Positions 3,029 to 60,006 of a DNA stretch of 60,006 bases are shown here, piece after piece. Numbering within the stretch: the stretch's first letter is position 1; every line of letters begins with the position of its first letter. The notes beneath the pieces were generated by a model that saw nothing but the letters and a program-made list of their open reading frames with translations, was not told the origin of the DNA and did no database searches. A program made the translations under genes and the position numbers. The DNA is from an uncultured Candidatus Peribacteria bacterium. Lineage in GTDB: Bacteria > Patescibacteriota > Gracilibacteria > UBA1369 > LOWO2-01-FULL-3. The stretch is from the NCBI GenBank assembly GCA_964480115.1, contig CAYZOB010000075.1, forward strand, positions 1 through 60,006, in the 5' to 3' direction.

Positions 3029-3031
3029 TTG

Positions 3032-14209: not shown

Positions 14210-17200
14210 ATGCGAAAATATGGTTATTTAAATTGGTTGAAACGATTGGTGGCTTTTCTGACGATTTTTGCGGTTTTTTCCAATGGTGCTTTTGCGTCAA
14301 TTTGGAATGTTGATATCAACTCTGATACCGATCCAAATACTTGTGTAGCCAATGAAGCTGATAATGATGATGATTGCACTTTTAGAGATGCTATAAGTCA
14401 GCTGGCCAATGGTGATACGATCAGATTTTTGGAGGATGAGACAATAACCGATACCACTGCCGGGATTACTTCTCATCAGATTACAGCAAATAATATCACT
14501 ATTGATGCAACAACCGGTAACAGGACGGTAAACTTTGATGGTAATCAGAAAGGTGGTGGAAGTGCGGCGGCGTTTTTACGCATATATGGAACTAATTTCA
14601 CTTTAAACGGTGTGCATCTCTATAATTACAACGGTAATGCCATACAGTTGGAAAATGGTGCCAACACTGCAAATATTCATGATAACGTAATTGGCAGAAA
14701 CTCTGCTGCCGCCGGTACCGGAAATTCATATGCGGTGAATATTGCCGGAGCAACCGGAGTTACAATTCAAAATAATGTTTTAAGCAATAATGGTAGAGGT
14801 ATTCTGATCAATACTCTACAACCGGTCGATGCTACCATTAAGGGTAATAGAATCGGTGTAGATGGAACTTTATCTTCCGGGGCATTGGCTGCAACCGGTG
14901 GTAATACCGCCGTTGCCAATTCCGGTGCCGGCATTGAGGTTCAGGGTGGAGATTTTTCAGGAGGATTACAGATTGGTGGATCCGCCGCTGCCGATAGAAA
15001 TATTATCTCCTCCAATGCGGGTTCCGCCGTATGGGTCAGAAGTTCCAATGCCGTTACCGGCACTATTACAGTGCAAAATAATTATATGGGTCTTGGACTG
15101 GATGGTTCTACTGTTTTGGCGAATGATACAAGCTCAACCAGTTATGGAGTAATTAATGTTGATAATGGTGCTGCTACTGCGGCTAATTGGACAATTAAAG
15201 ATAACGTGATTTCCGGTAATACCGGAGGTATCGGACCTATTCCCGGTATAGCCGTAAGATCAGGTGGTAGTGCTACAATTCAGGGTAATAAAATTGGCGT
15301 GAAAGCTGATGGCACTACGGCAGCCGGTAATAGCGGTCCTGGTATTTTAGTTGATGCAGGTACGGTAATTATTGGTACTAATTCTGATGGAACAAATGAT
15401 GCGGCTGAAGCGAATATTATTGCCAATAACGGTGCTGATGGTATTGAGAATACCGGTGCGGAGACGAATACCATAACTATTGCCGGAAATTCAATTGGTT
15501 TGGATTCTGCTGGTGGGGCGGATGGCAATACTTTGAGTGGGATTAAAATCAATAGCAATGCTACTACGGTTGCTATTGGCAAAGTGGCACCAAGCACTCC
15601 CGCAAACGGGCGAAATAAAATAGGTAATAATTCCGTAAACGGTGTTGAGATTGCAAGTACCGGTGGTACTTCGGGAAGTCCGGCGACGGTAACTATAGTG
15701 AATAATTATATCGGCACCGATGGCACGACTAATTATCCGAATACGGTCAGTGGTATTAAGTTTGCGGCAACTTCCGGCGTTACAAATCCAACTATTGGTT
15801 CTAATGGGGATGGAACAAATGACGCAAATGAAGCCAATACTATTGGTAAAAATGCGACTGCCGGAGTAAGCGCGACCACTGCGGAAATATTTATTCAAAA
15901 AGCTGTGAAAAATCTGGTGATTGCCGGAAATATTATTCTTGGCAATACGCCAACCAACGGAAGTCATGGAATTCTTGTAAACAATAGTACCGATGCGGTT
16001 TTAGCTTCTATTGTGATTGGCGGTGATGACTGCTCTACCGATGCTCATGCGACAAGCAATAGTTCGGTGGAAAGAAATTATATTACAGGAATCAAGGGTG
16101 AGGCCATATATATAGCTGATGCCGGTTCAGCTTCACCTACCGCTACCAGTCTTACTGTTCAATGTAATCAGGTTGGTATTAAAACTGATGGTACTTCCAG
16201 CGCCAATGCGATCAAGGGTGTAAATGTAGTAGATGCCGGGAACATTGTTTTCAAGGATAATACTATAGCTAATTCTGCTACCGACGGTGTCAATATCACC
16301 GGCGCGACGAAGGTGGAAGCTTATGGTAATAAAATAGGTACGGTTGCTTCCGGTTTGACACCGGCCGGTAATGGCGGTTATGGCATGATTATTAATGCGG
16401 CTACTTTGGCTGTTAGTGAATCTATTCCAATTCCTGTGATTATTGGTGGTATTACTGCCGCTTTGGGTAATGTTTTTGCCGCTTCATCGGGAGTTGCAGC
16501 TTTGCAAATCAATGATGTGGCTGCAACAACGACCCCTGTTACTATTCAAGGAAACTATGTGGGTGTATGTGCCGATCCTTTCGGCAAAGGTACGATTGCG
16601 ACAGGAAATCTGACTACCTGCAAAAACACACAGCGTGGTATAGGAATTTATGATGGCAGTGTGACTGTTGGTGGAGGAAGCGGCAACAGTATAGAAGTAG
16701 ATGGTACTTTGGCTGCCGGCAATGTGATTGCTAATAATGGTAGCGAAGGTGTAGCCATCGGTTTTGGTGGCACGCCATCGTCTGTTACTTTGACCGGCAA
16801 TATAATTGGTTTAATTAAATCTACCATTAATGATCCTTATAATGTGGCTGCCGGCAATACGAATGAAGGTATCAGTGTTTCCGGAGGTACTCCTGTTATT
16901 ACAATTGGGGGTACGGCCGGAGCGAATGCCTCTGCAAATCGCAATGTCATTTCGGCAAACGGTGGCGGAATTATTTTTAAAACAGCTAATAATTCAGCGG
17001 CTACAATTATAAATAATTATTTTAATACTGACTGGACCGGTGTGACCAAGCTTGTTGGTGCCGGTGGTGGTGCTATCGATATTGAAAGTGGAAGTTCTAC
17101 GATAAATGTTGGTGGAACAGGTACTAATCAGGGTAATTTAATTATCCCCGGTACAAGTTCTAATTTGGCAGGAGCTGCAATAGAGACGAGCTTAACCTAT

Positions 17201-43635: not shown

Positions 43636-44562
43636 CTATTTGATTGTTAGACTGGTCATGAATTCGTTAAATTCCTTTTCTTCATCTGGAAACCGATTTA
43701 TATCGGTAGCTGCAAAAACTATATTGAATAAATCGTTGTGAGTAAAAATAGCGATTCGCTTTATTTTCCTTTCTGTTTTTTCTTTGGCACCTAAAATATT
43801 TTCGTCAACAATAAATGTTCCTGTGGCTGCCGGTAAACCTTGAATGGTAATTTCCTGTATCTCGCCAGCTCGTTTAAAATTTTTCCAGTTTAAATTTGGA
43901 TCTGCTTTGATGCCCTCTTCTATCGATTTTAATTGGCCATCAAGTATATCTTTTGGTTTGCTATTTTGTATTGTTGTCGCATTTAGGATGTTGATTAATT
44001 TCTGATCGTGGTCAATGCTAATAGTGGCAATACCATTCTCTTTAAATAGCTGAATTATGGTATCTGTATCACCGGGGTCGTTTTTGTAGGCATGCCAACC
44101 TTTTGGTACGGTTGCAGAAATGTATTTGTTTTCAAATACAATATGTCCGTTGATTAAAATCAGCTGTCTAGTTTGCAAAATATTAAAGCCATAAATCCCA
44201 CCATTTAATAATCCCACGAAAATAACAGAATATAAAATGGGCAGTTTGAAACTGGCTTTTTTGCCTCCGTCTTTTAGAAATTTATCGAATGTTGCTCTTT
44301 GACTATAATAAAAAAACAGAGCTGCAATGATGTTCGAAGACAACAGATTTTTTTCGTTTAAATAAAATGTAAACACCAAGATAAGTAGAAGAATAAAAGC
44401 GGCTGCTACACCCACAATAAATCGCCATTTTAACTGTGGTTTGCCAAGTTTGCTCCAATTTATGGCGTAAAAAATTCCTGCCGGGAAAAAGCCCAAGAAA
44501 AAAGTTAGCCAGGCTATACCGGTCGGATTCCAGGCTGTTTTTGTAGTGCTTTGTGATGTCAT
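43636..44562 (-). CDS. Hypothetical membrane-anchored protein
   Basis: 308 aa. About 4 N-terminal TM helices, then a soluble domain of about 170 aa with no recognisable family. Confidence 0.55.
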   Translation of the reverse strand: MTSQSTTKTAWNPTGIAWLTFFLGFFPAGIFYAINWSKLGKPQLKWRFIVGVAAAFILLLILVFTFYLNEKNLLSSNIIAALFFYYSQRATFDKFLKDGGKKASFKLPILYSVIFVGLLNGGIYGFNILQTRQLILINGHIVFENKYISATVPKGWHAYKNDPGDTDTIIQLFKENGIATISIDHDQKLINILNATTIQNSKPKDILDGQLKSIEEGIKADPNLNWKNFKRAGEIQEITIQGLPAATGTFIVDENILGAKEKTERKIKRIAIFTHNDLFNIVFAATDINRFPDEEKEFNEFMTSLTIK

Positions 44563-44653
44563 GACTGATGTAAAATTTGTCTGTGATAATATACATGGTG
44601 GACTTGTGATTAACTAGTAAATTGATTACAGATTGAATTTTGCACATTCTTTT

Positions 44654-45481
44654 TCATTGTAATTTTCTCAATGCCGGATGTCCTAAAATTGACTTCATTT
44701 GATAAATTGCTATCTCGTTTAGTTTTAGTAACCTTTCTTCGGGCTGCACGCATTGTTTGATCATTTCAGCATTCAAGCTTTCGAGATTTGAAAGCACCAC
44801 CAGCTGTTCGATTGTCGCATAATCCCGAATATTGCCTTCCTTGTTAGGATTTTCATCGCGCCATTCTTTGGCGGTCGTGTTGAATAAGGCCTTGTTTAAG
44901 AGATCGCCCTCGCTGGCATAAACAAATTTTGCCGGAATCTGATCAATTTTTAGGGGAATCAGATTTTGTTTGATTGCATCGGTATGAATTTTGTAATTTA
45001 CTTTTGCCAATTCGCGTTTTACGTCCCAACCAAGCGATAATTTTTTGTTTTCTGCTTCCTTGAGTCGTTGAAATTCCTTGATCAAATAGAGCTTAAATTC
45101 CGGGCTGATCCAGGAGGCAAACTCAAAGGCAATGTCTTTGTGGGCGAAGGTACCGCCACCGTAGCGGCCGGGTTTGGAAATTATGCCAATAGCATTTACA
45201 CCTTCACTCCAGCGTTTAGGGGTCATAACAAAAGCATTTAGCCCTGCTTGAGATTTAAACCCGTCGAATTCGACGGGTTTAAAATTTTGGTTATTTATTT
45301 TTTCCCAAAGCCCTAAAAATACTAGAGTGTTTTTGTTTCTAATCCAATTTTTTATAATATCGTCAGGGCTTTTGAGATCCTTGTATCGCGCAATATCCGT
45401 TAGTGAGATGTAATCATTTTTTTCCTTTTGAAATAAAGAAATTTCCATACCTTTCACTTCAATTTTTTTATTTTTTTGCAT
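44654..45481 (-). CDS. KilA-N domain-containing DNA-binding protein
   Basis: ISLTDIARYKD..IKNWIRNKNTLVFLGLWE..GGGTFAHKDIAFEFASWISPEFKLYLIKEFQRLKE matches the KilA-N fold common in phages and mobile elements. Confidence 0.8.
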   Translation of the reverse strand: MQKNKKIEVKGMEISLFQKEKNDYISLTDIARYKDLKSPDDIIKNWIRNKNTLVFLGLWEKINNQNFKPVEFDGFKSQAGLNAFVMTPKRWSEGVNAIGIISKPGRYGGGTFAHKDIAFEFASWISPEFKLYLIKEFQRLKEAENKKLSLGWDVKRELAKVNYKIHTDAIKQNLIPLKIDQIPAKFVYASEGDLLNKALFNTTAKEWRDENPNKEGNIRDYATIEQLVVLSNLESLNAEMIKQCVQPEERLLKLNEIAIYQMKSILGHPALRKLQ

Positions 45482-45526
45482 AGTAAAAATAAGTTAAATA
45501 TTAATTCAACTCATAATTTTACCGGG

Positions 45527-45563
45527 CAAACTTAAAATTTTCTTAAAATAAAGTTAAAATCTT
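45527..45563. repeat. Copy 2 of the 37-nt AT-rich element (see 12293..12329)
   Basis: A 26-nt exact match plus 8 of the next 11 positions. Located in the divergent intergenic region between the KilA-N gene and the membrane-protein gene at 45635. Confidence 0.8.
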
Positions 45564-45634
45564 GGAGATTTTTGGAAGATTGGGTTGCCGAAGTTCTTTC
45601 AATGTTTTTAAGTATGCTATAGAATTGCCTCGTT

Positions 45635-46027
45635 ATGTCACTTACTCGTATTTTTCTTGTACCTTTCCTGCCTATTCTTTTTGCTTATTTGGAGTTGGGA
45701 GGAAATTGGTTTGGGTTGAGACTTTTGCAGGGAGGCCCAAGTTTCTGGAGTATTTTTGGGACAATTGTTTTTTCCGTTCTTTACTCTATAGTGGCAGCTT
45801 CTTTTGCTTTGGTGCTAAAGGTTGATATCGGTCTCCTGATGGTGAATTATGGTTTTGGTTTTAGTATTATTTCAATTTTTCTAACTTTAAACTGGGGTAA
45901 ACTTCCTTCATTTTCAGTCGAACTTATAAAAGCCAATCCGTTTCTTTGGGTTATATTTGGTGTCGCTGTTGTTGGTTTTATTGGAAGTGCTTATTTGGTA
46001 GTTGTTTCTCAGACGGCGGCGAGGTAA
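45635..46027 (+). CDS. Hypothetical membrane protein (4 TM)
   Basis: 130-aa hydrophobic ORF with an ATG start. Confidence 0.5.
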   Translation: MSLTRIFLVPFLPILFAYLELGGNWFGLRLLQGGPSFWSIFGTIVFSVLYSIVAASFALVLKVDIGLLMVNYGFGFSIISIFLTLNWGKLPSFSVELIKANPFLWVIFGVAVVGFIGSAYLVVVSQTAAR

Positions 46028-47893: not shown

Positions 47894-48248
47894 GTGGGTG
47901 GGTGGGGTGCTTGGTGAGAAATATGCTAACTGCCCGCTAGGTTTTTATTATATCAGAATTTTGACCTATTCAAAGTTTTTCAGAGGCCGGCTTCGAAGCT
48001 GCCAATGATAACAGGTAGGTCGTGGAAATTACCGATAGGGTGATAGCTTATCAAGAATTCGCGCCGATGATGGGCGGGTAGTTGATGGTAGATTGAATGA
48101 GTTTTACGAGGTGGCGGAGTGAGCTGACAAGCGCTTTGGCTCGTATGTGCCGGTCAATTTGACTTGTTTGTCATTCTGTTTCCTGCTCGGAATTGACCGT
48201 TGACAGTCAATTTGGGGACGAAGCTTGAGCCAAGAAATGAAGATAAAT

Positions 48249-48272
48249 GTCTGCCCGGGCAGACTTTTTGTT
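48249..48272. terminator. Bidirectional intrinsic terminator hairpin just after the stop of the giant operon
   Basis: Perfect palindrome GTCTGCCC/GGGCAGAC (48249-48264). It is flanked by TTTTTGTT on the + strand, and on the - strand by AAAAA upstream and AUUUAUCUUCAUUUCUU downstream. It lies 9 nt from the TGA at 48274-48276. Confidence 0.65.
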
Positions 48273-48273
48273 A

Positions 48274-51200
48274 TCAGTTTGGCACCACTACTTGTTGCAG
48301 ATTTATAAGCTCACTGATTCCGGGTGGAGGGTTCAGCAGAATACGTTCGTCGTAGTGGATATTTACCGAACCTTCGTCTTTTAGGGGGTCGCCGGCAAAT
48401 TGGCGGTTGGTAAAGAGGTCGAACACATTTCCTATCAGACTGCCGTTAATATTGAGTGGGATTTCGTCGGTGTAGCTATTTGACTGGATTTGGCCTTTGT
48501 CCCCATTTGTTCGAGTGTCCACGGCCATTACTATGCCATCGATACGATCGACACTACTATCGATAATGATGTTTCCATTGATTACGATGAAGGCGGCGGA
48601 GGCAATTTTTTTCTTATCAAAAGTGGTGAGGAAGTTGTAGTTGTCATATTCAATGTTGGAGTTGATATAAAGATTATGGTCTTTTACGATGTAGGTTTGG
48701 GCGGCCGGTATGTCATCGCTAGATGTAATGATATAGGCGTTTTGGTCAGGATCGGTGAGAGAGGGAGCGTTGCCGCTTATGGTCAAGTCGCCATCAGTTT
48801 TTACGAAGATGCCACTTTGGGAGTTTGTTTTGTTTGCAAGTTCAGATATATTTTGAATTGTCGGATTATTTTCGACATTCAAATTCGCATCGAATCTGGC
48901 AATTCTTTTCACATTGGCATTGATCGATTCGGTGATATTTTTCTTGGTCCAGGCTTTGGAAATATCGGCGCGGAGCTCGCAAATGCTACTGGAGAAGTTT
49001 TCGAGGACGTCTTGGTAGGCTTCGAGGACGTTGGCATCGGCGTTAGCAATACCGTCTGCATTTTTACCAGCAGTATTGCTGGCTTTGCAGACGTCGTTGG
49101 AAGGGGATTGAAGTAGAATTGGTGTTGGATTGCCATTTGCATCCGTACCTGATTGAGGATTTTCCTGCTGTCCGGGTGTCTCCGGTGTAATACAGGGTCC
49201 ATCACAGGTTTTGACCGCTGAACATTGGCTTACGTCCACGCCGGTCTTGATGACATCGTGGAAGAATACGTCACCGCCCTGGCGGGAAAGAATGTATGGG
49301 CAGATGGCGATTACTTTAGCTTTGCTCTCTAGAGATCTTGTGCTGTCAGATGAACTGTTATTACTATACAAACTTGCTTTTACCGTGTTATCAAATGTTT
49401 GTCCGCAACCTAACTTTTTTGCTGACATGCTTTTGCATTGTGCGTCACTAACTTTATCTTCATACCTCATTTGATACTTGATAACAATTTTTGTATTTTT
49501 GATGTTTTTGAAGGTCAGGCCATTTTTCTTGAATGCGCTTTCAATATTGTTTAAATTGGCTATATCTATACAGATATTGCTTGAATTTGTTTTACAGTCT
49601 ACTTCTTTGTTCGGCGCCGGTGGCGATAGCTCTTTATCCGAGAATTGGCCAAATAGGCCGGCGGAATTTTTGTTTTGCTCGTCTGCTATATAGTTATCTG
49701 ATTGATATAGTATCTCTGTCTTGCCATCCTTTAGAGATATAATTTCCATTGCGTCGAATTTCAGTTTGCCATTTGGTTTTCCATAGATAATATTATCATT
49801 TAAGCTTTCATCTTTAATCAAAGCTTTGTTATAGTCCGTTCCGGCGTTAACTATTACCATGTAGGTGAGGTAGTTTAATTTGTTGTTAATATTGATTGTC
49901 TCGGAACTTTTCTTGATATTGTTGGAAGGATAAACATATTTTGAAATTGAGGGATTTGTTGAATAGGAAAATGCTCCGCCACCTACTCCACCGCCGCCAC
50001 CTACTCCACCGCCACCTCCGCAGCTTGATCCGCTACAAGACCCATTCGTGCTTACCGTTTTATTGATAGGGTAGTTACATGATGCATTTGTTGAACCTAC
50101 AGCTTTGACATTGATAAATAAAGTATTGGGGTTTGGAGTATAGTCACCAAAACTATTTTTTGTGTAAGTAAATTGTAAAGTATTATTGCTGTTTTTTACC
50201 TCATCCGGAGTGAAGGTGATTGATTCATAATTTGTCTCCGATTTGCCGGCACTTTTTATAGTTGGTTTAGTTCCTCCTCCTATAGTACTACTGATACTTA
50301 CCTTGATTTCCCCCGGATGATTTTTGAAATCACCATTAATCTTGAAATCCACCTGGTTATTACTCATCGGGTCAAAATTGCCTTCGTTGGGAGTTACGTT
50401 GATTGAGACACAGGCGGAAGATGGTGGTATCGCCGGATTACTAAAATCAATTGCCTTGGCACAGGCAGGTTCGGTGAATCCTACAGTTTTGATTGTAATA
50501 ATGTTTGGAATTACTCCTGTATCGTTTTTTGACGGCTGAGTGAAAGTGAAAAGTAAGACTGTAGCATTATGATCTACAGTGATTGTCTGAGAGGTGGAAG
50601 TCGCGAATGACGGTGGAAGATTGCTCTTGTTTAAGGTGTTTTTGCTTTGTAGATCTTTCAGAACCGTTTCGATTATCAATCCGTAAATTCCGGAAGTATT
50701 TGTTGCGATAAAAGTTCCATAGTTTTCATCAATTGTGTAAGTCACCTTGTTGGCTGTTCCCGTGGCTGTGAGTGTTGAGCCGAGTTTATAGATGTTGTTT
50801 TTTTCCAGTTTTCCATCGGTCGCCGGTGTTCCATCTGATTTTTTCAAATCGTAGGTCAGACTGGTACAAACTTGTCCCGGAAGCGGATTAAAGAAAGGTA
50901 GGTTTTCCTTACATTTACTTCCGCCTCCTACAACCTGTCCCTGCAGAACATCTTGGATCAGTCCGGTTTGAGCCGGTATGATGTTTTTCGTCTGGATATA
51001 GAGAGGAAGCGTTCTCAGGTTGTCTACAATTGTTCCGATGCTTTGAGCGGGTGGAAGTTTGGTAAAGTCCAGAAAATAGCCGTAATTTTCATTGATTTTG
51101 TACATGACTTTTTGCACCGCTTGTGAAGTTGTGGTGATATTTTCCTTGATTATGTATCTTTGGTTTTTTTCGAGCTGGGTCACAGGGTTTCCATCCAGTG

Positions 51201-54200
51201 TGACGATGAGTTTGAGATCGCTGCAAACCGCTTCCGGTGGGGGATTCAAAAATGGCATGGTCTTGGCACATTCGGCATTGCCATAGCCAACAGCTTTAGC
51301 CATTAATATGTCTGGAATCAAGCCTGTCGGAGCGAGTGGAGGAGTTTCGTTCGTAATAACTAAAATCAGCTCACCGTTAAACGTCTCATTTAGCATAATT
51401 TGTTGAACTATTTTTGGTGGCGTGGTGCTCTGGTCGTAGAAGTAGCCATAGGCGCGATCGATTGAATAAGTAATCCTGTCGATGGTATGTCCATTAGTGG
51501 TGATATTGGCGCTGACAGTGTAGCTTTTGCCTTTTTCCAATACGTTTGCTTGATAGCCGGTGGCCTTGTCTTTTACTAAAAGATTTAATTCTTGACATTG
51601 TTTGACCGGTGTTGGCAGATTATTGAATGACATGGTCTTGGCACATTCGGGATTGCTGTAGCCGGCTCCTTGAGCTTTTAGAATGTCTGGAATTAAGCCG
51701 TTATGAATTCCCGTAAGAGTTCCGCGCGTGGTTAAAATCAACGGACCGGTCATTATTTCACTCAATGTAACTTGCTGAATTTTTTGCGGATTTAGCGGAT
51801 CGGTCATGTCGGTGAAGTAGCCATAATCGGGATCGATAGAATAGCTTATTTCTTCATTGTTATTTCCCGTAGTACTGATTGTAGCGCTGACGCTGTAGCT
51901 TTTGCCTTTTTCCAATTGAGTGACGGGGGCATTCGTTACCAGATCCTTTACGACAAGATTCAAATTCGTACATTGATTGACCGGTTTGCGTATAACGCTG
52001 ATTGTGCCTTTACAAGCTTTGTTGTAAGCCGGATCTTGCGAATCGAGGCTGATGCTTGCATATCCCACGTTTGTGGAATTCTTAAACAAAACTGGGAAGT
52101 CGCTGATCTTGGCTGTGAGAATGTTTGTTAAAGTATTGTTGTTGAATTCTCCGCCGGCGGTGGTGGAAAGTACTATTTTACTTGTTGTTGGCAATGGTGC
52201 GCCGGATCTGCCTACGGGTGTGATTTTTATGGTTGATGTTTGTCCGACTGTGAGGGGGCTGATTGGGGTGCTGGTCAGATTTAGGCTGCTGCAAACGGCT
52301 TCGATACTGAAATCCTCACTGCAATCAGGATTGTCGCTGCCCACGGTTTGCACATGTATGACGTTTGTGCCCGGTTTTTTCGCCCAGAAATAGACGGTGG
52401 TGCCCGGTTCTACAGTAATGGTTTCGAAGAGTGAACTTATGATGGCGGATTTTCCGCTGAAATTACTGTTGTCCGGCTTGATCACACTCGGATCGACAAG
52501 AGGTATACCGATTGGTTTTTTCGGATCGATGTTCAGGTCCAAAAATGGTTTGGTTGATCCTTTGTCTCCGGTTTTATCGTTTAATTTGTTGAGGTTGGGG
52601 TCCAAAAGGTTGGGGTTGATATTTGGGTTACCAATCGGTTTGGCCTGATCGATGTTCAGGTCCAAGCTTTTTTTGTTTACAAGTTCCGACTGATCTGCAA
52701 TCGCGAGCAGCACATTGTTTTGGCCGGATTTCGGATTGAAATTTGAGCCATTACCTTTTTGTTGAAATTGCTCCGCGTTTGGTTTTGGTGCGAGGCCGGT
52801 TATTATCCATTCCGGTAATTCGATGGCGGCTTTTTGCACTGCCTGGTCTAATTTGTTGATGTCTGTAATATTTTCGGAAAGATTATTAATGCCGAAGGTT
52901 CCGGCGGCAATCTGGGAATTTATGTTCAAGATTGAATTGATGGTCTGCGCGGTGTTGCTGTTACCAAAAACCAGGATTTTTGGCGTCAGCTTAAAGTCAG
53001 GAATGTAATTGATATCTGCCGGAATTGGGCCGAGGCTGCCACTATTGCCTCCGGCTCCGCTACTGTTCACCATTGGCGAGGTGTTCAGAGGAATGTTTTG
53101 TGGTGCGAAAGTGTAGAATTCCCCGTAGCCGGCGTCTACACTGTAAGTGACTTTAGTGTCAAGATCATTGCCGTTGGTGTCTTTGGGTTTGGCTTTGAAA
53201 ACAGATACAGTTCCTTCGTAAATATGCTCCGGATGGTCAATCAGGATTTCTTTACATTCGGGTACGTCCGGAATTCTGAAGCTTTTTCGGCAGACCTGGG
53301 GATTTGCTGATGTTGAATCGATACCTGTTAATTTTATCGTTACCGTGCCGGTACCGATGTAGTAAATTTTATCATTAATATCGGTAATGGTGTTCGCGGT
53401 GCCTATCTTGATGAAAGTGGCTACGTCATCACTACCGTCCGGGCTTTCTCCATAAATATATGTGGCCTTCCAAAATTCACCATTAGAATCAGTACTGTTC
53501 CATGCATATTTGACTTCATTTGGAATAATGTTTTCTGGTGCAAAATTGACGGAATCTATTTTGATAGGGTAGGCATCTTTGTTGTTAATTTTAATTGTTT
53601 CGGTAGTTAGAGAGCCTTTGAGTTCGGTACAAATGGGGGGGGTTGGTGGAGGAGTGATGCCATTCCATATTGTTGTTGTTGTGCCGATTGGAAACCAGTA
53701 GTAGTTATTAAATTCACCAGGTTGGTCTGCCGTCTGGGGCATGGCCTGCCAGTCTGTACTACTTGGAATTACGCCCGGTACTACTTTTGCAACAAGATCC
53801 TTAATCAGAATTCTTGAGGTGGTGGTTGCACTCCAGGCCGCTTTTTTATTGTCTTTACTTGTCATAACAACAGAGACTCCAAACTTTCTATTCTCCGGTT
53901 TTGTTGAGTCTATGGTTGAATTTGTTAACTTATCGAGTGTTGGGTTTTTGCCTTCTATCAGAGGTTTGCCGTAATTTTGGTTTGCTGATGTTCCGGGAAA
54001 ATGCCATTTAATTATTCCGCTGTTTTTGTCAAAACTTACTTCGTAGAATAATTCCTGATTGAAAATATTTTTACCTAATGTTGCTGTTCCGTTACAGTTG
54101 GTTCCAACAGCTAGGCCTGAGCATTCAATAGAATTAAGATTGATGGTGTCTCGAAGATCTTGTTCAATGTGCATTTCGAAAGTATCTACATATGATTCTT

Positions 54201-54606
54201 TATAAAAATTTACGTTTTTTGCCTGTCCATTTTCAATAATTGATTTGTTCAATTCTTCGGTGGAAAAATTAAAATATTTATGAAAATGTTCCGTGGCTGG
54301 TTGATGGACCGTTGTAACAGCCGCTTTGTGTTGGGTTAGGTCAATATTAGCCTTGTGGCTACCGGGAAAAGCGTCATGATGGTTCAGATTTTCACAACTT
54401 TGAGTAATATTATTCGGGGTGTTTGTTCCTAGAGGAAGTGACGGATTGAAATTTTGCGATATTTCTTCGCATTTTAGGAGTGGATTATTGGGATCAGCAA
54501 AAGTTACATTTGCTTGTGTTGTCAGAATGACCAGTAGTCCGATTAGTAGTATTTGTAACTTTTTCATTTTATTTGTTTTATTTTTATTGTAGAGGGGCGC
54601 TACCAT
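48274..54606 (-). CDS. Giant (2110 aa) secreted protein with tandem Cys-bracketed modules, a poly-Gly hinge and a DUF11-like/beta-rich C-terminal region
   Basis: Signal peptide (MKKLQILLIGLLVILTTQANVTFA, second ATG at 54567). At least five modules share C.(E/S/D)L...(T/S)Y.ID..YG.F...C. CGGGGGVGGGGGVGGG linker. The start at 54606 overlaps the upstream giant ORF by 23 nt. Confidence 0.85.
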   Translation of the reverse strand: MVAPLYNKNKTNKMKKLQILLIGLLVILTTQANVTFADPNNPLLKCEEISQNFNPSLPLGTNTPNNITQSCENLNHHDAFPGSHKANIDLTQHKAAVTTVHQPATEHFHKYFNFSTEELNKSIIENGQAKNVNFYKESYVDTFEMHIEQDLRDTINLNSIECSGLAVGTNCNGTATLGKNIFNQELFYEVSFDKNSGIIKWHFPGTSANQNYGKPLIEGKNPTLDKLTNSTIDSTKPENRKFGVSVVMTSKDNKKAAWSATTTSRILIKDLVAKVVPGVIPSSTDWQAMPQTADQPGEFNNYYWFPIGTTTTIWNGITPPPTPPICTELKGSLTTETIKINNKDAYPIKIDSVNFAPENIIPNEVKYAWNSTDSNGEFWKATYIYGESPDGSDDVATFIKIGTANTITDINDKIYYIGTGTVTIKLTGIDSTSANPQVCRKSFRIPDVPECKEILIDHPEHIYEGTVSVFKAKPKDTNGNDLDTKVTYSVDAGYGEFYTFAPQNIPLNTSPMVNSSGAGGNSGSLGPIPADINYIPDFKLTPKILVFGNSNTAQTINSILNINSQIAAGTFGINNLSENITDINKLDQAVQKAAIELPEWIITGLAPKPNAEQFQQKGNGSNFNPKSGQNNVLLAIADQSELVNKKSLDLNIDQAKPIGNPNINPNLLDPNLNKLNDKTGDKGSTKPFLDLNIDPKKPIGIPLVDPSVIKPDNSNFSGKSAIISSLFETITVEPGTTVYFWAKKPGTNVIHVQTVGSDNPDCSEDFSIEAVCSSLNLTSTPISPLTVGQTSTIKITPVGRSGAPLPTTSKIVLSTTAGGEFNNNTLTNILTAKISDFPVLFKNSTNVGYASISLDSQDPAYNKACKGTISVIRKPVNQCTNLNLVVKDLVTNAPVTQLEKGKSYSVSATISTTGNNNEEISYSIDPDYGYFTDMTDPLNPQKIQQVTLSEIMTGPLILTTRGTLTGIHNGLIPDILKAQGAGYSNPECAKTMSFNNLPTPVKQCQELNLLVKDKATGYQANVLEKGKSYTVSANITTNGHTIDRITYSIDRAYGYFYDQSTTPPKIVQQIMLNETFNGELILVITNETPPLAPTGLIPDILMAKAVGYGNAECAKTMPFLNPPPEAVCSDLKLIVTLDGNPVTQLEKNQRYIIKENITTTSQAVQKVMYKINENYGYFLDFTKLPPAQSIGTIVDNLRTLPLYIQTKNIIPAQTGLIQDVLQGQVVGGGSKCKENLPFFNPLPGQVCTSLTYDLKKSDGTPATDGKLEKNNIYKLGSTLTATGTANKVTYTIDENYGTFIATNTSGIYGLIIETVLKDLQSKNTLNKSNLPPSFATSTSQTITVDHNATVLLFTFTQPSKNDTGVIPNIITIKTVGFTEPACAKAIDFSNPAIPPSSACVSINVTPNEGNFDPMSNNQVDFKINGDFKNHPGEIKVSISSTIGGGTKPTIKSAGKSETNYESITFTPDEVKNSNNTLQFTYTKNSFGDYTPNPNTLFINVKAVGSTNASCNYPINKTVSTNGSCSGSSCGGGGGVGGGGGVGGGAFSYSTNPSISKYVYPSNNIKKSSETININNKLNYLTYMVIVNAGTDYNKALIKDESLNDNIIYGKPNGKLKFDAMEIISLKDGKTEILYQSDNYIADEQNKNSAGLFGQFSDKELSPPAPNKEVDCKTNSSNICIDIANLNNIESAFKKNGLTFKNIKNTKIVIKYQMRYEDKVSDAQCKSMSAKKLGCGQTFDNTVKASLYSNNSSSDSTRSLESKAKVIAICPYILSRQGGDVFFHDVIKTGVDVSQCSAVKTCDGPCITPETPGQQENPQSGTDANGNPTPILLQSPSNDVCKASNTAGKNADGIANADANVLEAYQDVLENFSSSICELRADISKAWTKKNITESINANVKRIARFDANLNVENNPTIQNISELANKTNSQSGIFVKTDGDLTISGNAPSLTDPDQNAYIITSSDDIPAAQTYIVKDHNLYINSNIEYDNYNFLTTFDKKKIASAAFIVINGNIIIDSSVDRIDGIVMAVDTRTNGDKGQIQSNSYTDEIPLNINGSLIGNVFDLFTNRQFAGDPLKDEGSVNIHYDERILLNPPPGISELINLQQVVVPN
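50413..53256 (-). repeat. Array of diverged protein-module repeats within the 2110-aa ORF (the four best conserved span 50413..51972 and are roughly 120-150 aa each)
   Basis: Module starts at Cys codons 53254-56 (CKEIL), 51970-72 (CTNLNLVVKD), 51595-97 (CQELNLLVKD), 51223-25 (CSDLKLIVTL) and 50866-68 (CTSLTYDLKK). Each ends in ..GLIPDIL.A...G...(E)CAK(T)..F. Confidence 0.75.
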
Positions 54607-57600
54607 CAGGTGTGTTATATCCTCCTTCTCTAATTGTGTCTATCGGCGTAGCTGGTGTATTGGGATCTGCAACTCCAGTGCTGACGCCTCCTTCAGGAGT
54701 TGCTTCCGGGGCAGGTTTTTCCTCCGGAGGGGGTGTTTCTTCATCTGCTTTTACGTCAAATCCTCCGCTAAAACTGAAAGTCACGCCGGCTAATGCCGTT
54801 TCTGCGTCGGAGACTTGTGTAACTTGTTCACTGGCTCCAACTACCGATATCTTCTTGCCGGTTACTTTAGCTTTGCCATTTCCCGATACGTAGAAACTTG
54901 GATTGGTACATTGGGTATATGCGCCTGCTACTATCTTAGTGTCTGAGACCATGTTTATGGTTATTTTGCTGCCGGTTTCCGCACTGACTGTTTCATAAAC
55001 TTGGTTTTCATGTTGTGACTGTCTTAGTGCTAATACTAAATTTTTAAATTGTGTAAAAGTTTCTTTATACTTATCATCATCAAATTTACTTGTATCCTGT
55101 AAGAGTTCGAGCATTAATTTGTAGTTTTTTTCACCCGCAATTAATCTGTAAGCTCCTAAACCTAATATTTTTATCGCAAAGTTTGATTTTAGTACCGATT
55201 CTTGATTACTATTACATCTATCACCAATCCTTAGTAATATTCTTGCGATATCTCGTTCTGCCCCATTGCCTGCCAGAGAGTATTCGTGTGTTGTGGTATT
55301 TAGAAAGCCCGATTCGTAAAGCTGGGCATCCGATTTGTCAGTTTTTTCGAATAAGCTATGAGACAAGATTTTTTCGCTCTTTCCGTCAACTATTAATTTT
55401 GTTCCCGACACTAAATCTGCTCCGTTTGGGATTTCACCGTCCGCCCCAAGGTCTCTGAAATCAAAAACCGGTGATGTTTCTTTATCAAGTGCTGCAAGGA
55501 TTTTGTCGTAAATTCCTCTCATGAAATAGTTTTTCACTAAATCTTCAGCATTTTTATTGCTTAGAGGAGGATTCATTGAGGAAATAACAGTCTGAAATTC
55601 CTCGATGTATTTTGAAGTTGTATAATCCCTCACCACTTCTATACGTTTTTTGAGTTGTCGATTTTTTGCAATAAGTTCTTTATCACTTAGAGGTTTTTCT
55701 TTGAAAATTTGTACCGCATTAATGATGGTTTTCGCTTCTTCATTGCTTAACTCGACTCCTTTTTTTGAGCAAATCTTCTGTAATTCTGTAGTTGTTAGAA
55801 TGTCCAGGTTGCGAATGTTTTTAAATCCGGCCTTGCGAAGATTGGTATTTATTGTCGGCGTCAATTCCAGTTCACTTAGTGCTCCTTCGCATCGGTAAGC
55901 CGTAGTAAACCAGAGGTCGCGCAGCATGTTTTCAGCCAGAGCAAGTTCTTTTGGTTTTAAGTCATTTAATTCAAATGCTGGGTGTGAGTTAGTGTATTGT
56001 TCCAGCCATTTTGCAAGAGCGCCAAAATCCCCTCTATCAGTTGAATCAAACTTTGCGCCGTATTCATTGTGGAAATCCGGATTAATAAATAGAGATCTTA
56101 TTTTCTCATTGAATTCTGCTCTTGGTTTTTCTGCTTCAAAAGCTTCTTTATTAATAGCTCCCAGGACTGTATGCATATCTTTAATTTCATCCAGCATGGC
56201 ATCTGCTTTTGTTTTATCTATTATTTTGTCTTCGTTTCCAACCTGCATTGCTTCTGGTCGATATTGTTGGAGATTCCTTGAGTAGTTGCTTCCAAATTCT
56301 TTGCTGTCTTTCCAGTCCGTTCTAGTGGCAAAACCTTTTACTTCTCGGATATTATCTTGCAATGAACCTATATATCCTCCTCCTGCTTGAGTTTTGAATT
56401 TTTCTTTGCCCATCATAATTTCTAAATAATTTTGTTCATTTTCTTGTAACCAGGATCGGTCAATTTGTTTGCCTGAGACAGAGCTGCTTTGTCTGATGGT
56501 GATAACATCTCTGATGGAAGACCTGCCTTCATCTTGAAAGCGGGAAAACCTGAATCTTTCTCTTGTGATTACCAGGTCATCGATGTTTCCGTCCAAGAAT
56601 ATTTTTTTGCCATCTTGAGTCAGTCCTAGAGTTAAAAGATTTGGATCAATATGGATTTCGAGGTCTTTGTCAGCTTCCCCGTTTTTGTTAAATAAATTAT
56701 CAATGGCTAATTCGATTTTGCCATCAGGGTGTTTTATTAGTCTTGTCTCAGTGCCTCCTTCTTCCAACGCCTTGTTGTATGTTTCGATGTCATTGCGTAG
56801 AGGGTATAGATCGATTACGGTATTTTCAATTCTGATACCTTTGCCGAGATTACTTCCCGGTCTATAATAAACATCGGGAGTATTTTCTGTGAAAATTACT
56901 TTTTCTTTCCCTGTCTTCATCTTCTCAAAAGCGTCTAGGATTTTGGCTCTAACATTTGCATCAGTAGCCAATTCGAGAATTTTTTGTTCTTCTTTTGGAT
57001 GGGGAATGAATATTTCGACTGTACCGATGCGGAATTTGGCTCCGGTAATTACGGCTACTCCTAAAGCCGCTAATGCTCCTACTCCGCTTGCCAAGGCGAT
57101 CGCGGCCGGAATTACACCTGCAACTCCGATACCTGTTAATGTTGGCAAAGATAATGGTACGGAGAATGGTGTTTCCGCCTTGCTGTCAGCCGCACCTTTT
57201 AATGCGGAAATATGGCTATCATAAGCTCTAACTAAATTTTCATCGGTTAAATATTCCGACAATGCAGCTTGTACGGCTTTTATAGATGTCCATGTAGGTG
57301 ATTTTTGAAGTGAGGCCATTTTCTCTGCAGTAGACATTTTTGGCCAATTTGCGAGATCTTCTTTAGTCCATCCGGTTTCTTTCACTGTTTCTTCCTGAGC
57401 TTGTGTACGTTCATGTTCCAATAATGCTCTATCCCAGCTAACTCCTATCCCGGCACCAACTCCCAGATTGACAATGTTTGACCAGGAAGCGCTTAATCCT
57501 AGCATCCAATCTATATCAACTCCTTTGCCGGCATCGAGATTGCCGGAAATTCCGGCAGCGGCTCCCATTATGGTTACTCCGGCATTGAAATTGAAATTCC

Positions 57601-60006
57601 AGCCTTCGCCACCGTCTATTTTGCAACTATATGCCACTGCAGGTGCAATTTTCCCAGGAATTGATTTTCCGACGCCAAAACCAAAGGTTATTGTGGATCC
57701 GTTACTTAGCGTCCAAGGGATTGCCACGCCGCCGGCTACTACGTTGCCATTTTGGTCGAGCTGTATGTGGCCATGCATTATATTTGTTGATTTGCCGCCA
57801 TTTTTCAGGCCTTCGGCTGCTTCTTTTATTTTCATTGGCGTTTGTACTAATTTATCTCTTATCTCCAGAAGTATTGGGGCATTTCTCGGATTGCCTTGTT
57901 TTAATATTTCTTTGAAAAGTTTGCGTTCACCGATCTCTAGTGGTTTTTGATCCTTAAAAATAGAATCGAGGTAGCTGTTTATTCCTTTTTCAACAGTGTT
58001 TTCACTTTCTTCGATTTCCTTGTTTAAAAATCCTAACTGGAAGGCTTTCATTTTGTCTTCCGTGAAATCAGTGTCTCTTAAATTTTTGATATTATATTGT
58101 TTAGCATTTTCCTGAATACTTGTAATTTGTTGCTCAGTTAAAGGCGTGTTTGCTGCTTTAGCCTTTTGTATTTCCCTGATGGCGTAACCTCTCTGCATAA
58201 GCTCATTAATCTCTTTTAGCAGGGCAGGTTCATTAATCTCTTTATGGCTATTTTTGATAATATAAAGTCCTGGTTTTTCCAATAAAATGAATAGTGCTGC
58301 CTTGGGATTAAAATATCTTGAAAACATTCCTCGATCCACGTCAAAGGTCGATCCATCCATGTTTGCCATGGTTATATTTTGCGCACCACCGAGCCATCCC
58401 AGAATTTCTTGCCATTGATCTGATGGATCTTCGGAGTAATTAAGTAATTTCTGTAATGATTTGAGGATTGGCAATTGATTTTCAGGAATACTGGCTTTCG
58501 CGACAACTAAAGGATCTTTTTGAACTACCGGGCCTTCTCTTTTTTCGTCGAAGCGTAGTTGAGACATGGCTTCCAGTAATTTTAGTGCGGGAGCAATTAT
58601 TTTTTCAAGAATGTACAATGCTTCTTTGTTTTTTCCTTGTCTATTTAATTTTTCAAATTCAGCCAAGATTTTATTTCCGTCCTGGAGTAATTCTGCGGAA
58701 ATGTTTCCTTCATTGGCAATGGCCTTAAATCCGGGATATTCATTTGCAAAAGTGAAAATATCCGCGAAGTATAATCTGTCATTATTTCCTTCAGTGATGA
58801 TTTTAGTGGCGATTGTACCGACAAGCTGTGATGAAACTCCAAATGGAGGCTTGCTCATTATATTCTCTACAGGTTTGCGATTTTCGTAATTTCCCCAATT
58901 TATTGCTATGTCGCCTTCATACATGTCTCCGATTGTATGGTCTAAGGTGTATACTTTAGAGGTTAATTTCTCATAATTATTAGCGTAATTTAGGATTTTT
59001 TGGCTTTCATGCTCGTCCTTTCTTACTTCGGTGCGAGCCTTGCGTGTTTCATTAGCAAATTCTTTAAAGGCCGCAGTATCCCTGCCTTCAAGGGTTATAG
59101 CTTTAATTTCCAGAATTTTATCTATGAGTGGAAGTGTTTCGTCAAATCCATAGTTTTTTGTGTCGTTTGAGGCTGACCATGTTAAGGATTGCTTGGATTT
59201 TTCATCTATTAATGTAACTTGTGCAGTATTGGGGAGGTTTTTTTTAAAACTGATGCCGATTGTTTTTAGTGTGGCGATGATTTCAAAGGTATCCTTTGCA
59301 TTTTTTAAGACATTAGTATAAGAAATCAGAGCTGTTTCCAGGGCTGCTGCTCCAGGGGCTGTCAGTCTTTCCGGTCCATTGGTAATTTTCAATCCTTTCC
59401 CTTTGAGGTCTGCTATTTTTTGTGTTGTTTGATCTTCTGTTAAAAATGTTTTAGGAGCTGATGCGATGGTTTTGAGCTCTATTTCGGTTGGGGCCGGTTC
59501 AGGTTCGGCTGGAACAGGTTCGGCTGGAGCTGGCTTGACTACCTTCGTTTGTGTGGCAAAGTTTGTGCTATCAATATTTTGGTTAATAAATTCCTCATTA
59601 TCCCTTGCCGGTACAGGATTTAATTCATTGTCATATTTCATATCATCATCTCTGAGTGCTTCTCTACGATTCTTGTAATTAGTTTTACTTACTAGACATT
59701 CAGCTCTTTCCTTGGCCTCTTCTTCTGTTTCGGGGAAGATTTCGTCATCAATAACTGGAACTGGCTCGGGTTCGGCTGGAGCTGGAGCAGGTTCGGCTGG
59801 AGCTGGTTCATTTGGCGCTGGTTCGGCTGGAACTGGCTCAGGCTTGGCTGGAGCTGGTTTTGTTGAGTCGTCATTTTTCAGTGGTAATTTATTCCAAATG
59901 ATATCATCATCGTTTTTAGTACTCGTTGTGAATCTAATCATTTCTATTCTACTGTCTACGAAAAGTCTGTCTAATTCTAGATCTTTACCTTTGAATTCTT
60001 TGTTTA
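54584..60006 (-). CDS. Giant (at least 1785 aa) leaderless protein with Pro/Ala/Glu linkers, a glycine-rich membrane-insertion-like core and an HhH motif; the 5' end may lie beyond the window
   Basis: The first in-window Met is at 59941, but the frame stays open (NKEFKGKDLELDRLFVDSRIE-M) to base 60006, and no SD precedes 59941. The ORF ends at TAA 54584-86. No recognisable enzymatic domain. Confidence 0.8.
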   Translation of the reverse strand, partial: NKEFKGKDLELDRLFVDSRIEMIRFTTSTKNDDDIIWNKLPLKNDDSTKPAPAKPEPVPAEPAPNEPAPAEPAPAPAEPEPVPVIDDEIFPETEEEAKERAECLVSKTNYKNRREALRDDDMKYDNELNPVPARDNEEFINQNIDSTNFATQTKVVKPAPAEPVPAEPEPAPTEIELKTIASAPKTFLTEDQTTQKIADLKGKGLKITNGPERLTAPGAAALETALISYTNVLKNAKDTFEIIATLKTIGISFKKNLPNTAQVTLIDEKSKQSLTWSASNDTKNYGFDETLPLIDKILEIKAITLEGRDTAAFKEFANETRKARTEVRKDEHESQKILNYANNYEKLTSKVYTLDHTIGDMYEGDIAINWGNYENRKPVENIMSKPPFGVSSQLVGTIATKIITEGNNDRLYFADIFTFANEYPGFKAIANEGNISAELLQDGNKILAEFEKLNRQGKNKEALYILEKIIAPALKLLEAMSQLRFDEKREGPVVQKDPLVVAKASIPENQLPILKSLQKLLNYSEDPSDQWQEILGWLGGAQNITMANMDGSTFDVDRGMFSRYFNPKAALFILLEKPGLYIIKNSHKEINEPALLKEINELMQRGYAIREIQKAKAANTPLTEQQITSIQENAKQYNIKNLRDTDFTEDKMKAFQLGFLNKEIEESENTVEKGINSYLDSIFKDQKPLEIGERKLFKEILKQGNPRNAPILLEIRDKLVQTPMKIKEAAEGLKNGGKSTNIMHGHIQLDQNGNVVAGGVAIPWTLSNGSTITFGFGVGKSIPGKIAPAVAYSCKIDGGEGWNFNFNAGVTIMGAAAGISGNLDAGKGVDIDWMLGLSASWSNIVNLGVGAGIGVSWDRALLEHERTQAQEETVKETGWTKEDLANWPKMSTAEKMASLQKSPTWTSIKAVQAALSEYLTDENLVRAYDSHISALKGAADSKAETPFSVPLSLPTLTGIGVAGVIPAAIALASGVGALAALGVAVITGAKFRIGTVEIFIPHPKEEQKILELATDANVRAKILDAFEKMKTGKEKVIFTENTPDVYYRPGSNLGKGIRIENTVIDLYPLRNDIETYNKALEEGGTETRLIKHPDGKIELAIDNLFNKNGEADKDLEIHIDPNLLTLGLTQDGKKIFLDGNIDDLVITRERFRFSRFQDEGRSSIRDVITIRQSSSVSGKQIDRSWLQENEQNYLEIMMGKEKFKTQAGGGYIGSLQDNIREVKGFATRTDWKDSKEFGSNYSRNLQQYRPEAMQVGNEDKIIDKTKADAMLDEIKDMHTVLGAINKEAFEAEKPRAEFNEKIRSLFINPDFHNEYGAKFDSTDRGDFGALAKWLEQYTNSHPAFELNDLKPKELALAENMLRDLWFTTAYRCEGALSELELTPTINTNLRKAGFKNIRNLDILTTTELQKICSKKGVELSNEEAKTIINAVQIFKEKPLSDKELIAKNRQLKKRIEVVRDYTTSKYIEEFQTVISSMNPPLSNKNAEDLVKNYFMRGIYDKILAALDKETSPVFDFRDLGADGEIPNGADLVSGTKLIVDGKSEKILSHSLFEKTDKSDAQLYESGFLNTTTHEYSLAGNGAERDIARILLRIGDRCNSNQESVLKSNFAIKILGLGAYRLIAGEKNYKLMLELLQDTSKFDDDKYKETFTQFKNLVLALRQSQHENQVYETVSAETGSKITINMVSDTKIVAGAYTQCTNPSFYVSGNGKAKVTGKKISVVGASEQVTQVSDAETALAGVTFSFSGGFDVKADEETPPPEEKPAPEATPEGGVSTGVADPNTPATPIDTIREGGYNTPDGSAPLQ

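Follow-up and report, generated by a model that had tools for sequence, protein, structure and literature searches.

Two adjacent giant genes, A and B, fill positions 48274-60006 of the 60,006 nucleotide (nt) stretch of DNA analysed here (contig CAYZOB010000075.1 of assembly GCA_964480115.1, from an uncultured Candidatus Peribacteria bacterium; hereafter the window), both on the minus strand, as the original prediction had recognised. They most likely form a two-gene module that is inherited vertically and restricted to the Peregrinibacteria/Peribacteria lineage, and are probably an undescribed module of the cell surface or of host contact, this function being putative. A scan of one genome per Genome Taxonomy Database (GTDB) species with a profile of the B C-terminal domain returned 80 loci (a protein search gave 23 B homologues), and 62 of the 80 loci were informative in having more than 1.5 kb upstream of the B open reading frame (ORF). 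An A-family ORF lies directly upstream of B, on the same strand, in 62 of these 62 species-level loci, assigned in 58 through a single-linkage network of phmmer matches to which the window protein belongs and in four, where B is split by a frame break, by the A hidden Markov model (HMM). The same co-conservation, first proposed as a check on the pair, extends to all 10 other contigs looked up (some from the same genomes as among the 62 loci), each of which has a giant gene without a signal peptide directly upstream of the B homologue.

The gene order tpiA (minus strand), A, B, holA is seen in eight looked-up contigs, among them some whose A members match the A profile weakly, and is the usual one in the related loci L001-L004, L006, L007 and L009 and a JGI contig. 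The pair is kept in three contigs of distant lineages with different upstream neighbours, holA being inverted in two; in L010 and L011 the upstream genes are S30AE and an ORF of ~155 amino acids (aa), holA is inverted and A-B adjacency persists, and the A proteins of these two loci link to the family of the window protein via L007 and L011. The distance from the A stop to the first ATG of B is variable in the relatives, with a median gap of 42 nt. Because the pair outlasts local rearrangements and keeps its orientation and short gaps, these genome comparisons argue that the pairing is not chance and that A and B would form a unit. The B homologues with a source name and the genome loci are almost all from Candidatus Peregrinibacteria or Peribacteria, some being labelled Gracilibacteria, Altimarinota or Patescibacteria.

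Further small ORFs accompany the pair in distant lineages. A conserved ORF of ~155-160 aa precedes gene A in L010 (3132-3608), L011 (3015-3482) and L007; the last (2611-3591 and 9706-9924) has two ORFs of this type, the second matching those of L010 and L011, and additionally a 72-aa ORF with a single transmembrane (TM) segment between A and B. These small ORFs may be extra module components; their identification as chaperones or WXG100-like proteins was dropped, there being no significant Pfam match. A complete A-B pair is also present in L033 (JAUVQE010000010.1), a contig of a metagenome-assembled genome labelled Nitrospirota, a label most likely due to binning contamination and not to horizontal transfer.

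The layout of the pair in the window is as follows.

54584..60006, minus strand: gene A, an ORF that runs off the window with its frame still open; at least 1806 aa.
54568..54583, minus strand: A-B spacer of 16 nt, A-rich, with no Shine-Dalgarno (SD) motif and no hairpin.
48274..54567, minus strand: gene B, 2097 aa, predicted from the ORF and its homologues to be a Sec-exported, cysteine-paired modular surface protein.
48249-48264, minus strand: terminator-like perfect palindrome GTCTGCCCGGGCAGAC, dG -9.1 kcal/mol, starting 9 nt after the B stop.

Gene A had been described as encoding at least 1785 aa, the length of the ORF that opens at its first in-window ATG, 59941 (ORF 54584..59941), a codon that is internal or unproven as a start; the frame stays open to 60006, giving at least 1806 codons, and the lower bound was correct. 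We place the true N-terminus of A beyond the window because an HMM of the family's N-terminal motif matches nothing anywhere in the window; the peptide ELDRLFV at the window edge was rejected as that motif, as it is not matched by the HMM. The 5' end of the gene was sought by exact-protein look-up of B (with either start), by exact 47-mer search and by a peptide-pattern scan of metagenome contigs, all returning no match.

The stop of gene A is a TAA at 54584-54586, and both candidate ATGs noted earlier for gene B, at 54606 (overlapping A; ORF 48274..54606) and 54567, are present. The longer product of 2110 aa very probably does not stand, since from the sequence the start is almost certainly 54567: all B homologues open with a short K-rich N-region followed by the signal peptide, and the genome is nearly without SD motifs and uses A-rich leaders like that before 54567. 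The GGAGG ahead of ATG 54606 consists of the Glu-Gly-Gly codons of gene A. Across the whole window an SD motif within 30 nt of a start is nearly absent (a 4-mer core matches at ~5 of 38 candidate starts) and leaders are A/T-rich, SD-based start-codon calls therefore being misleading here. A start at 54567 leaves a 16-nt gap, so that A and B do not overlap; this junction, with no SD usage in the genome and variable gaps in the relatives, points to tight operon spacing and not to demonstrated translational coupling, and the description of the genes as translationally coupled is not supported. The expectation of a terminator after the second gene only was borne out, no site comparable to the palindrome GTCTGCCCGGGCAGAC being found between A and B.

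Both genes diverge rapidly. Relative to the L004 genome, identity is 88% for gatA, 82% for TrmB and 80% for holA, compared with 44% for B and 27% for A; relative to L001 it is 81% for holA, 62% for A and 43% for B. By these sequence identities A and B diverge much faster than their neighbours, with their architecture kept, as is expected of surface or interaction proteins.

Gene A has no match in Pfam (E<=1), NCBIfam, PHROGs, PADLOC or the PDB, and sequence and profile searches of the PDB with single sequences and with the family alignments A4, A6 and A7 likewise returned none. The window B protein likewise matches nothing in these five databases, the PDB having been searched by sequence and by profile. 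RTX/MARTX toxins are marked by GGxGxD nonapeptide repeats and a C-terminal type I secretion signal; the GGxGxD motif is absent from A and B, with no HemolysinCabind match in Pfam. Neither protein has a Pfam match to the SLH domain of anchored S-layer proteins, although SLH proteins are found elsewhere in the window and in related loci. The earlier failure to recognise any known signature in either protein thus holds, and neither belongs to a characterised family. In an exhaustive HMMER search of 1.84 billion cluster-representative proteins with a profile of A residues 530-1729, we found 74 relatives, 54 of them at E<=1e-30, and detected none outside the clade. The weakest of the A-family matches carry no Pfam domain bridging to a known family. 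A word-indexed search recovered just 2-3 A relatives, its index being probably overloaded with low-complexity words. Judged on sequence, A is an orphan family that fits no known kind of system. Its members span 1500-4342 aa, nearly all full-length ones having 1500-3500 aa; the longest, P0026 (L006 10001-23029), is about twice the usual size at 4342 aa and is paired with an ordinary B of 1654 aa.

The full-length A-family members whose N-termini were inspected have no signal peptide, as had been predicted for A; in the window copy the N-terminus lies outside the window. An N-terminal motif, roughly [LF]-[FS]-K-E-x-R-[LFM]-[VIL]-[FY], occurs in 32 of 48 full-length members, in a part that the window copy lacks. 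An AlphaFold2 (AF2) model of A, built on an alignment of 29 sequences (mean predicted local distance difference test (pLDDT) score 74.2, predicted template modelling score 0.49), shows in order long helices, eight antiparallel strands, a helical insert of ~100 residues, a hydrophobic hairpin and alpha/beta domains. The features of A, from the N-terminal side, are listed here.

59756-59860 and 59489-59542, minus strand: acidic proline-rich (PAEP) linkers, found by direct reading and regular expression; internal.
57437..57781, minus strand: residues 742-856, Gly-rich amphipathic beta-meander of eight long antiparallel strands (AF2, pLDDT ~60-79).
57140..57436, minus strand: residues 857-955, charged helical insert between strands 8 and 9 (AF2, composition).
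57029..57139, minus strand: residues 956-992, hydrophobic Gly/Ala-rich hairpin, possibly strands 9-10 (Kyte-Doolittle, alignment, AF2 at low confidence).
54785..57028, minus strand: C-terminal alpha/beta domains (pLDDT mostly 80-90).
54902-54925, minus strand: invariant motif GAYT(K/Q)CTN, in which G, C and N are invariant.
54587..54784, minus strand: variable P/E/G-rich C-terminal tail.

PAEP linkers had been placed at both ends of A; the linkers and the proline-rich tail are present, and the two linkers are internal, not terminal. They align solely with the P/K/A-rich linker of P0001 (residues 368-409). The glycine-rich amphipathic core also described for A is confirmed and is resolved, by AF2 and residue pattern, as the beta-meander. 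Its strands are 8-18 residues long and, in 29 sequences less than 30% identical, follow a strict two-residue alternation, one face being 78% A/V/I/L/M/F/W/Y and 4% charged, the other 32% Gly, 13% Ser and 14% charged. Foldseek gave no significant match for any part of A, and no structural neighbour in the PDB or BFVD for the C-terminal alpha/beta domains. The best-ranked PDB neighbours are nearly all transmembrane beta-barrels (E 0.08-0.7), namely the invasin beta-domain 4e1t (top, E 0.076), OmpG, a designed 10-strand barrel (TMt 0.53-0.58), KdgM, Pla, OpcA and NanC, with FhaC also listed, and the best-ranked named neighbours in BFVD are outer membrane protein (OMP) beta-barrels (E 0.03-0.7); no lipocalin, FABP or other soluble-barrel neighbour was returned from either database. 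These barrel-like neighbours are weakly consistent with a membrane barrel in the predicted model. If the meander did span a membrane, its even strand number and very short turns would put both A flanks and the helical insert on the same side.

The hairpin of residues 956-992 is longer in the window copy than in most relatives. A strong hydrophobic segment occurs in some A members only and is rich in Pro and Gly, on which grounds a transmembrane-helix anchor was dropped; a lipid-transfer beta-groove of the TamB/AsmA type was also dropped, there being too few strands and no such structural neighbour. The soluble parts of A (flanks and insert) are 27-33% K/R/E/D and 0.1-0.3% Cys, unlike B and the window's other signal-peptide giant (14210-19390, below), and the Cys residues of A are unpaired and non-conserved.

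Protein B is of another kind. Its signal peptide, Cys-bracketed modules and beta-rich C-terminus were all as first described, and its features, again from the N-terminal side, are these.

54496..54567, minus strand: signal peptide MKKLQILLIGLLVILTTQANVTFA, 24 residues; not a lipobox, B being no lipoprotein.
53632..54495, minus strand: N-terminal conserved domain, aa 25-312, with the near-invariant motifs HxHxYxN, WSATTTSR and YYWFPIG.
50077..53631, minus strand: Cys-bracketed tandem modules, aa 313-560 and 749-1497, from module alignment.
aa 561-748, minus strand: N/P/K-rich linker between the module blocks.
49954..50076, minus strand: poly-Gly linker (CGGGGGVGGGGGVGGG).
49294..49953, minus strand: beta-sandwich, aa 1539-1758, with a predicted CNA/Cnm and Gram-positive pilin-like fold (AF2, pLDDT ~80-93).
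48277..49293, minus strand: aa 1759-2097, a Cys-rich segment (ICPYILSRQGGDVFFHD ... NFSSSICE), poorly modelled, then the beta-rich terminal domain.

The 32 Cys of B lie largely in close pairs, and such pairs flank eight modules of 90-135 aa, of which the two most alike share 50% identity. In the family the number of modules is variable and the C-terminal domain of ~560 aa is strongly conserved; the terminal beta-rich part (PAAQTYIV, SAAFIVINGNIIID, GDPLKDEGSVNIHYDERILLNPPPG) is highly conserved and confidently modelled within an AF2 model of the C-terminal region from an 18-sequence alignment (mean pLDDT 70.9). The modules are probably immunoglobulin (Ig)-like from their sequences, and Big_1, Big_4 and Invasin_D3 each match one B relative in Pfam (2 or 3 of 24 proteins). 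For the sandwich, Foldseek returned 7lgr (E 3.4e-5), 8jl8 (7e-5) and 2f68 (3.6e-4), the Cnm/CNA and pilin matches ranging from 3e-5 to 1e-2. The composition of B is of an extracellular type (18-25% charged, 20-28% S/T/N, 1.5-2% Cys), and the predicted folds support the view of B as a secreted modular protein with adhesin-type folds. The L004 homologue of B (P0007) has over its first ~260 aa an N-terminal domain different from that of the rest of the family, suggesting domain swapping at this end.

B resembles the MSCRAMM/CNA adhesins and pilins (CNA of S. aureus, Cnm of S. mutans, GBS80) in being Sec-exported and modular, and in a sandwich that matches, as a predicted fold only, the CNA/Cnm N2 and pilin folds. 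The MSCRAMM sorting signal is a C-terminal LPXTG followed by a TM segment and a charged tail. Unlike these adhesins, B has no LPXTG or sortase signal, no C-terminal hydrophobic segment and no Collagen_bind or Cna_B Pfam match, and it has disulfide loops between modules, unique conserved N- and C-terminal domains and a constant partner gene, A. B is thus of the giant-adhesin kind, without sequence membership in the CNA-type or Ig-like families. As to an anchor, B shows no LPXTG, SLH, lipobox or second hydrophobic or TM segment and ends ...LINLQQVVVPN, which leaves its retention on the cell unexplained.

It is quite possible, if somewhat short of probable, that the pair is a lineage-specific surface or host-contact module in which B is an exported, disulfide-stiffened adhesin-like fibre and A a membrane-associated partner that embeds via its amphipathic sheet. 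B would form the extracellular arm, exported by Sec and stiffened by its paired cysteines, and would be built of a conserved N-terminal 'tip' domain, Ig-like modules, the CNA/pilin-like beta-sandwich and the very conserved C-terminal beta domain. A, highly charged, mostly helical and without a signal peptide, would embed in or associate with a membrane through the Gly-rich amphipathic beta-meander and would most likely serve there as the base or scaffold by which B is positioned or held. That A embeds in a membrane, that A and B touch and that the pair takes part in attachment to a host are inferred in this way, as is the function in attachment or penetration initially suggested for the pair. 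The description of A as 'pore-like' is upheld as far as its core is barrel-like in predicted fold and residue pattern; a pore itself, with structural E-values of 0.03-0.7 and a core confidence of ~70, is no more than a plausible idea.

Several observations weigh against this proposal. The charged, Cys-poor composition of A fits a purely cytoplasmic protein, so that A may never leave the cell. The barrel matches are weak (best E 0.034-0.076), with pLDDT of ~60-79 over the core and ~45-63 over strands 9-10, and the Pfam OMP families give noise on slices of the meander (2 of 19 members, E>=0.15). Meander loops on the trans side would be too short to bind B, which leaves unexplained how A would hold it. 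The whole neighbourhood is syntenic in these genomes, making adjacency alone weaker evidence than it appears. We know of no beta-barrel in a cytoplasmic membrane, where such a structure would be unprecedented. The few bacteria of the candidate phyla radiation (CPR) with a described envelope are monoderm (PMC8871954). OMP beta-barrels (OMP_b-brl) are closed barrels of amphipathic antiparallel strands that turn a hydrophobic face to the lipid, and reach the outer membrane by a Sec signal peptide and with the help of BAM. A comparison with them is mixed: the two-residue alternation of A is alike and its ranked neighbours are barrels, at E 0.03-0.7 and pLDDT ~70, whereas the A family has no Sec signal peptide and the described CPR envelopes are monoderm (PMC8871954), BamA not having been searched for.

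The cytoplasmic composition of A would be accounted for if it were a purely cytoplasmic scaffold or cytoskeletal giant, similar to the Mycoplasma HMW proteins, that organises, underneath the adhesin B, a site of attachment at the cell pole, with the Gly-rich sheet as a soluble beta domain; we regard this analogy as doubtful, with an appreciable chance of being right. The absence of a signal peptide, the 27-33% charged residues and 0.1-0.3% Cys of the flanks and insert, the acidic proline-rich PAEP linkers, the long helices of the model and the lack of the strong hydrophobic segment in some relatives would all suit such a scaffold. Acidic proline-rich domains are carried by the HMW proteins of the Mycoplasma terminal organelle, and HMW1/2/3 and P200 with the P1 adhesin present a comparable arrangement, in which a reduced genome encodes large, charged scaffolds without signal peptides plus a giant exported adhesin. 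The PAEP likeness is compositional only, however, as A has no sequence or Pfam relationship to these proteins and no match to EAGR_box or another HMW-family Pfam entry; A has a long amphipathic beta-meander and HMW proteins have none, and Peregrinibacteria have a cell wall and SLH proteins. The sheet itself is not what a soluble scaffold would lead one to expect: its strands are 8-18 residues long, their non-hydrophobic face is mostly Gly/Ser and 14% charged, atypical for a solvent-exposed sheet, and no lipocalin, FABP or other soluble-barrel neighbours were returned. An identity of 27% for A against 88% for gatA is moreover extreme for a housekeeping scaffold.

Alternatively the membrane in question could be that of the host, A being exported non-classically (perhaps via the F-K-E-x-R-h-h-F motif) and its meander forming a pore or translocon there from one side, with B docking the cell, as in the penetration device first suggested. 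We consider this unlikely, if still worth serious attention. An even-stranded meander with short turns and all its large parts on one side is what is seen in self-inserting pore formers, the structural neighbours are barrel-like, A diverges even faster than B, and the N-terminal motif, shared by 32 of 48 full-length members, might serve as a signal for export; if the envelope is monoderm, as presumed, the cell also has no outer membrane of its own in which a barrel could sit (PMC8871954). The locus has no linked secretion system, however, and the composition of A is cytoplasm-like, its Cys unpaired and non-conserved. The structural evidence is weak, a single barrel of 8-10 strands would have a very narrow lumen, and similarity to pore-forming toxin families is absent but for a sole hint, Hbl B at E 0.08. 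Distinctly unlikely is the bolder proposal that A represents a new class of giant membrane protein without signal peptide, whose internal barrel self-inserts one-sidedly into the own or the host membrane and which would form with B a Peregrinibacteria-specific attachment or conduit device that taps the host.

That A and B are functionally unrelated and adjacent merely through a generally frozen regional gene order seems improbable to us. It is true that murC-like, Wzy_C, tpiA, holA, TrmB, gatCA, ftsX, recO and relA genes are likewise syntenic across the genomes, but the pair survives changed or inverted flanking genes, A and B are always on the same strand at the short median gap of 42 nt, and the only terminator-like hairpin near the pair comes after B. 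Both are in addition giant and unusually fast-evolving, and their lengths are weakly correlated (Spearman 0.45, p 0.01, n=31, not corrected for phylogeny).

The combination of a barrel-like element with a giant secreted protein bearing Ig-like modules of the Big/Invasin_D3 type recalls the inverse autotransporters (intimin/invasin) and two-partner secretion (FhaC/FHA). An inverse autotransporter joins in one polypeptide, behind a signal peptide, an IAT_beta barrel of 12 strands to a Big_1 passenger; in two-partner secretion TpsB combines, again behind a signal peptide, POTRA domains with an Omp85-type barrel of 16 strands (Pfam ShlB/POTRA_2), and TpsA consists of a beta-helical shaft preceded by an N-terminal TPS domain (Haemagg_act). 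In the present pair one protein carries the barrel-like element and the other the Ig array, with no sequence similarity to either system. A has no signal peptide, LysM or POTRA domain, exceeds 2000 aa with large charged domains on both sides and has a meander of 8-10 strands, B and 23 relatives have no TPS-domain (Haemagg_act) Pfam match, and the host lineage is presumed to be without an outer membrane. A type V-like secretion pair (two-partner or split inverse autotransporter), in which an A barrel in an outer membrane exports or anchors B, is thus highly improbable despite the invasin beta-domain (4e1t) as top PDB neighbour of A, the listing of FhaC, the Invasin_D3 and Big_1 domains in B relatives and the two-gene logic, given that A is without signal peptide and without POTRA, ShlB, IAT_beta or Omp85 Pfam matches, that B is without a TPS domain, that huge soluble domains would flank the barrel on both sides and that the few described CPR envelopes are monoderm (PMC8871954).

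In common with other CPR bacteria, Peregrinibacteria are uncultured organisms of reduced genome whose presumed way of life is on other cells. How CPR bacteria attach to and feed from their hosts is largely unknown, and their many giant proteins lack annotation (PMC11573180). Large, extracellular, strain-variable proteins are reported from Peribacteria (PMC4736985), and Peribacteria and Peregrinibacteria encode many such proteins that are uncharacterised (PMC4736985, PMC11573180); in Vampirococcus, a predator related to them, attachment to the host has been ascribed to giant membrane proteins (PMC8080830). With the giant surface proteins of these other CPR (Vampirococcus, Peribacter) the pair shares its phylogenetic neighbourhood and a giant, poorly annotated, strain-variable character of the kind proposed for host attachment (PMC8080830, PMC4736985, PMC11573180); unlike it, those reported have recognisable domains (DUF11, PKD, integrin, FG-GAP). 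We found no description in the literature of the A-B pair, leaderless with secreted, or of the A family.

CPR genomes commonly encode giant hypothetical proteins; a possible barrel in a protein without signal peptide from a presumed monoderm is unusual. The pair stands out in being present in every informative B-carrying genome examined and at a fixed chromosomal position in all 10 contigs with neighbours read, with one half exported and the other without a signal peptide, in evolving several-fold faster than its neighbours and in the lack of any detectable relative of A outside the clade. A membrane beta-barrel in A, if real, would go against the rule by which these barrels depend on an outer membrane and on the beta-barrel assembly machinery (BAM); should A be of a self-inserting class, it would be a beta-barrel machine in a lineage thought to be without either. 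Barrel or not, the pair is a concrete, clade-wide target for cryo-electron tomography, proteomics and structure prediction of CPR host-contact structures.

The surrounding window is Peregrinibacteria cellular chromosome. Downstream of the pair lie holA, a TrmB regulator, gatA, ftsX, recO-like and relA/spoT genes, with RNase Y, an SLH protein and others elsewhere, and the locus has a fixed chromosomal position among housekeeping genes; searches of A and B against the phage and defence families of PHROGs and PADLOC gave no match. The spacer between B and holA (47894-48273) is 380 nt long at 46% GC, unusually long beside the ~70-150 nt of most relatives; the idea that it holds an RNA or the remains of a gene was dropped, there being no Rfam match, protein remnant or DNA similarity to related loci. 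Between TrmB and gatA (43636-46027) are a 130-aa ORF, a KilA-N domain protein and a weakly ECF-transporter-like membrane protein, all three absent in L002 and L009, where TrmB abuts gatA, which suggests a local insertion here.

A further giant of 1726 aa (14210-19390, plus strand), without similarity to A or B, opens with a stretch resembling a signal peptide and contains a right-handed beta-helix (Pfam Beta_helix, 6.6e-8) as well as a repeat rich in Ala, Gln and Lys (AQAKADADAKVAAQAE...). At 7155-9383 (plus strand) a 742-aa protein has weak matches to ATPase families of the type IV secretion system (T4SS) coupling-protein and HerA types (T4SS-DNA_transf 1e-5, TraG-D_C, DUF87) and could be relevant to the export of proteins without signal peptides, although it is not adjacent to the pair. 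An SLH-domain protein (8e-23) is encoded at 10583-11365 (plus strand) and a lamin-tail-domain protein at 11300-12274 (minus strand). SLH proteins are also found in related loci, between holA and TrmB (L001, L004), after TrmB (L003) and near TrmB (L006), which by their sequences indicates an SLH-anchored envelope in this clade.

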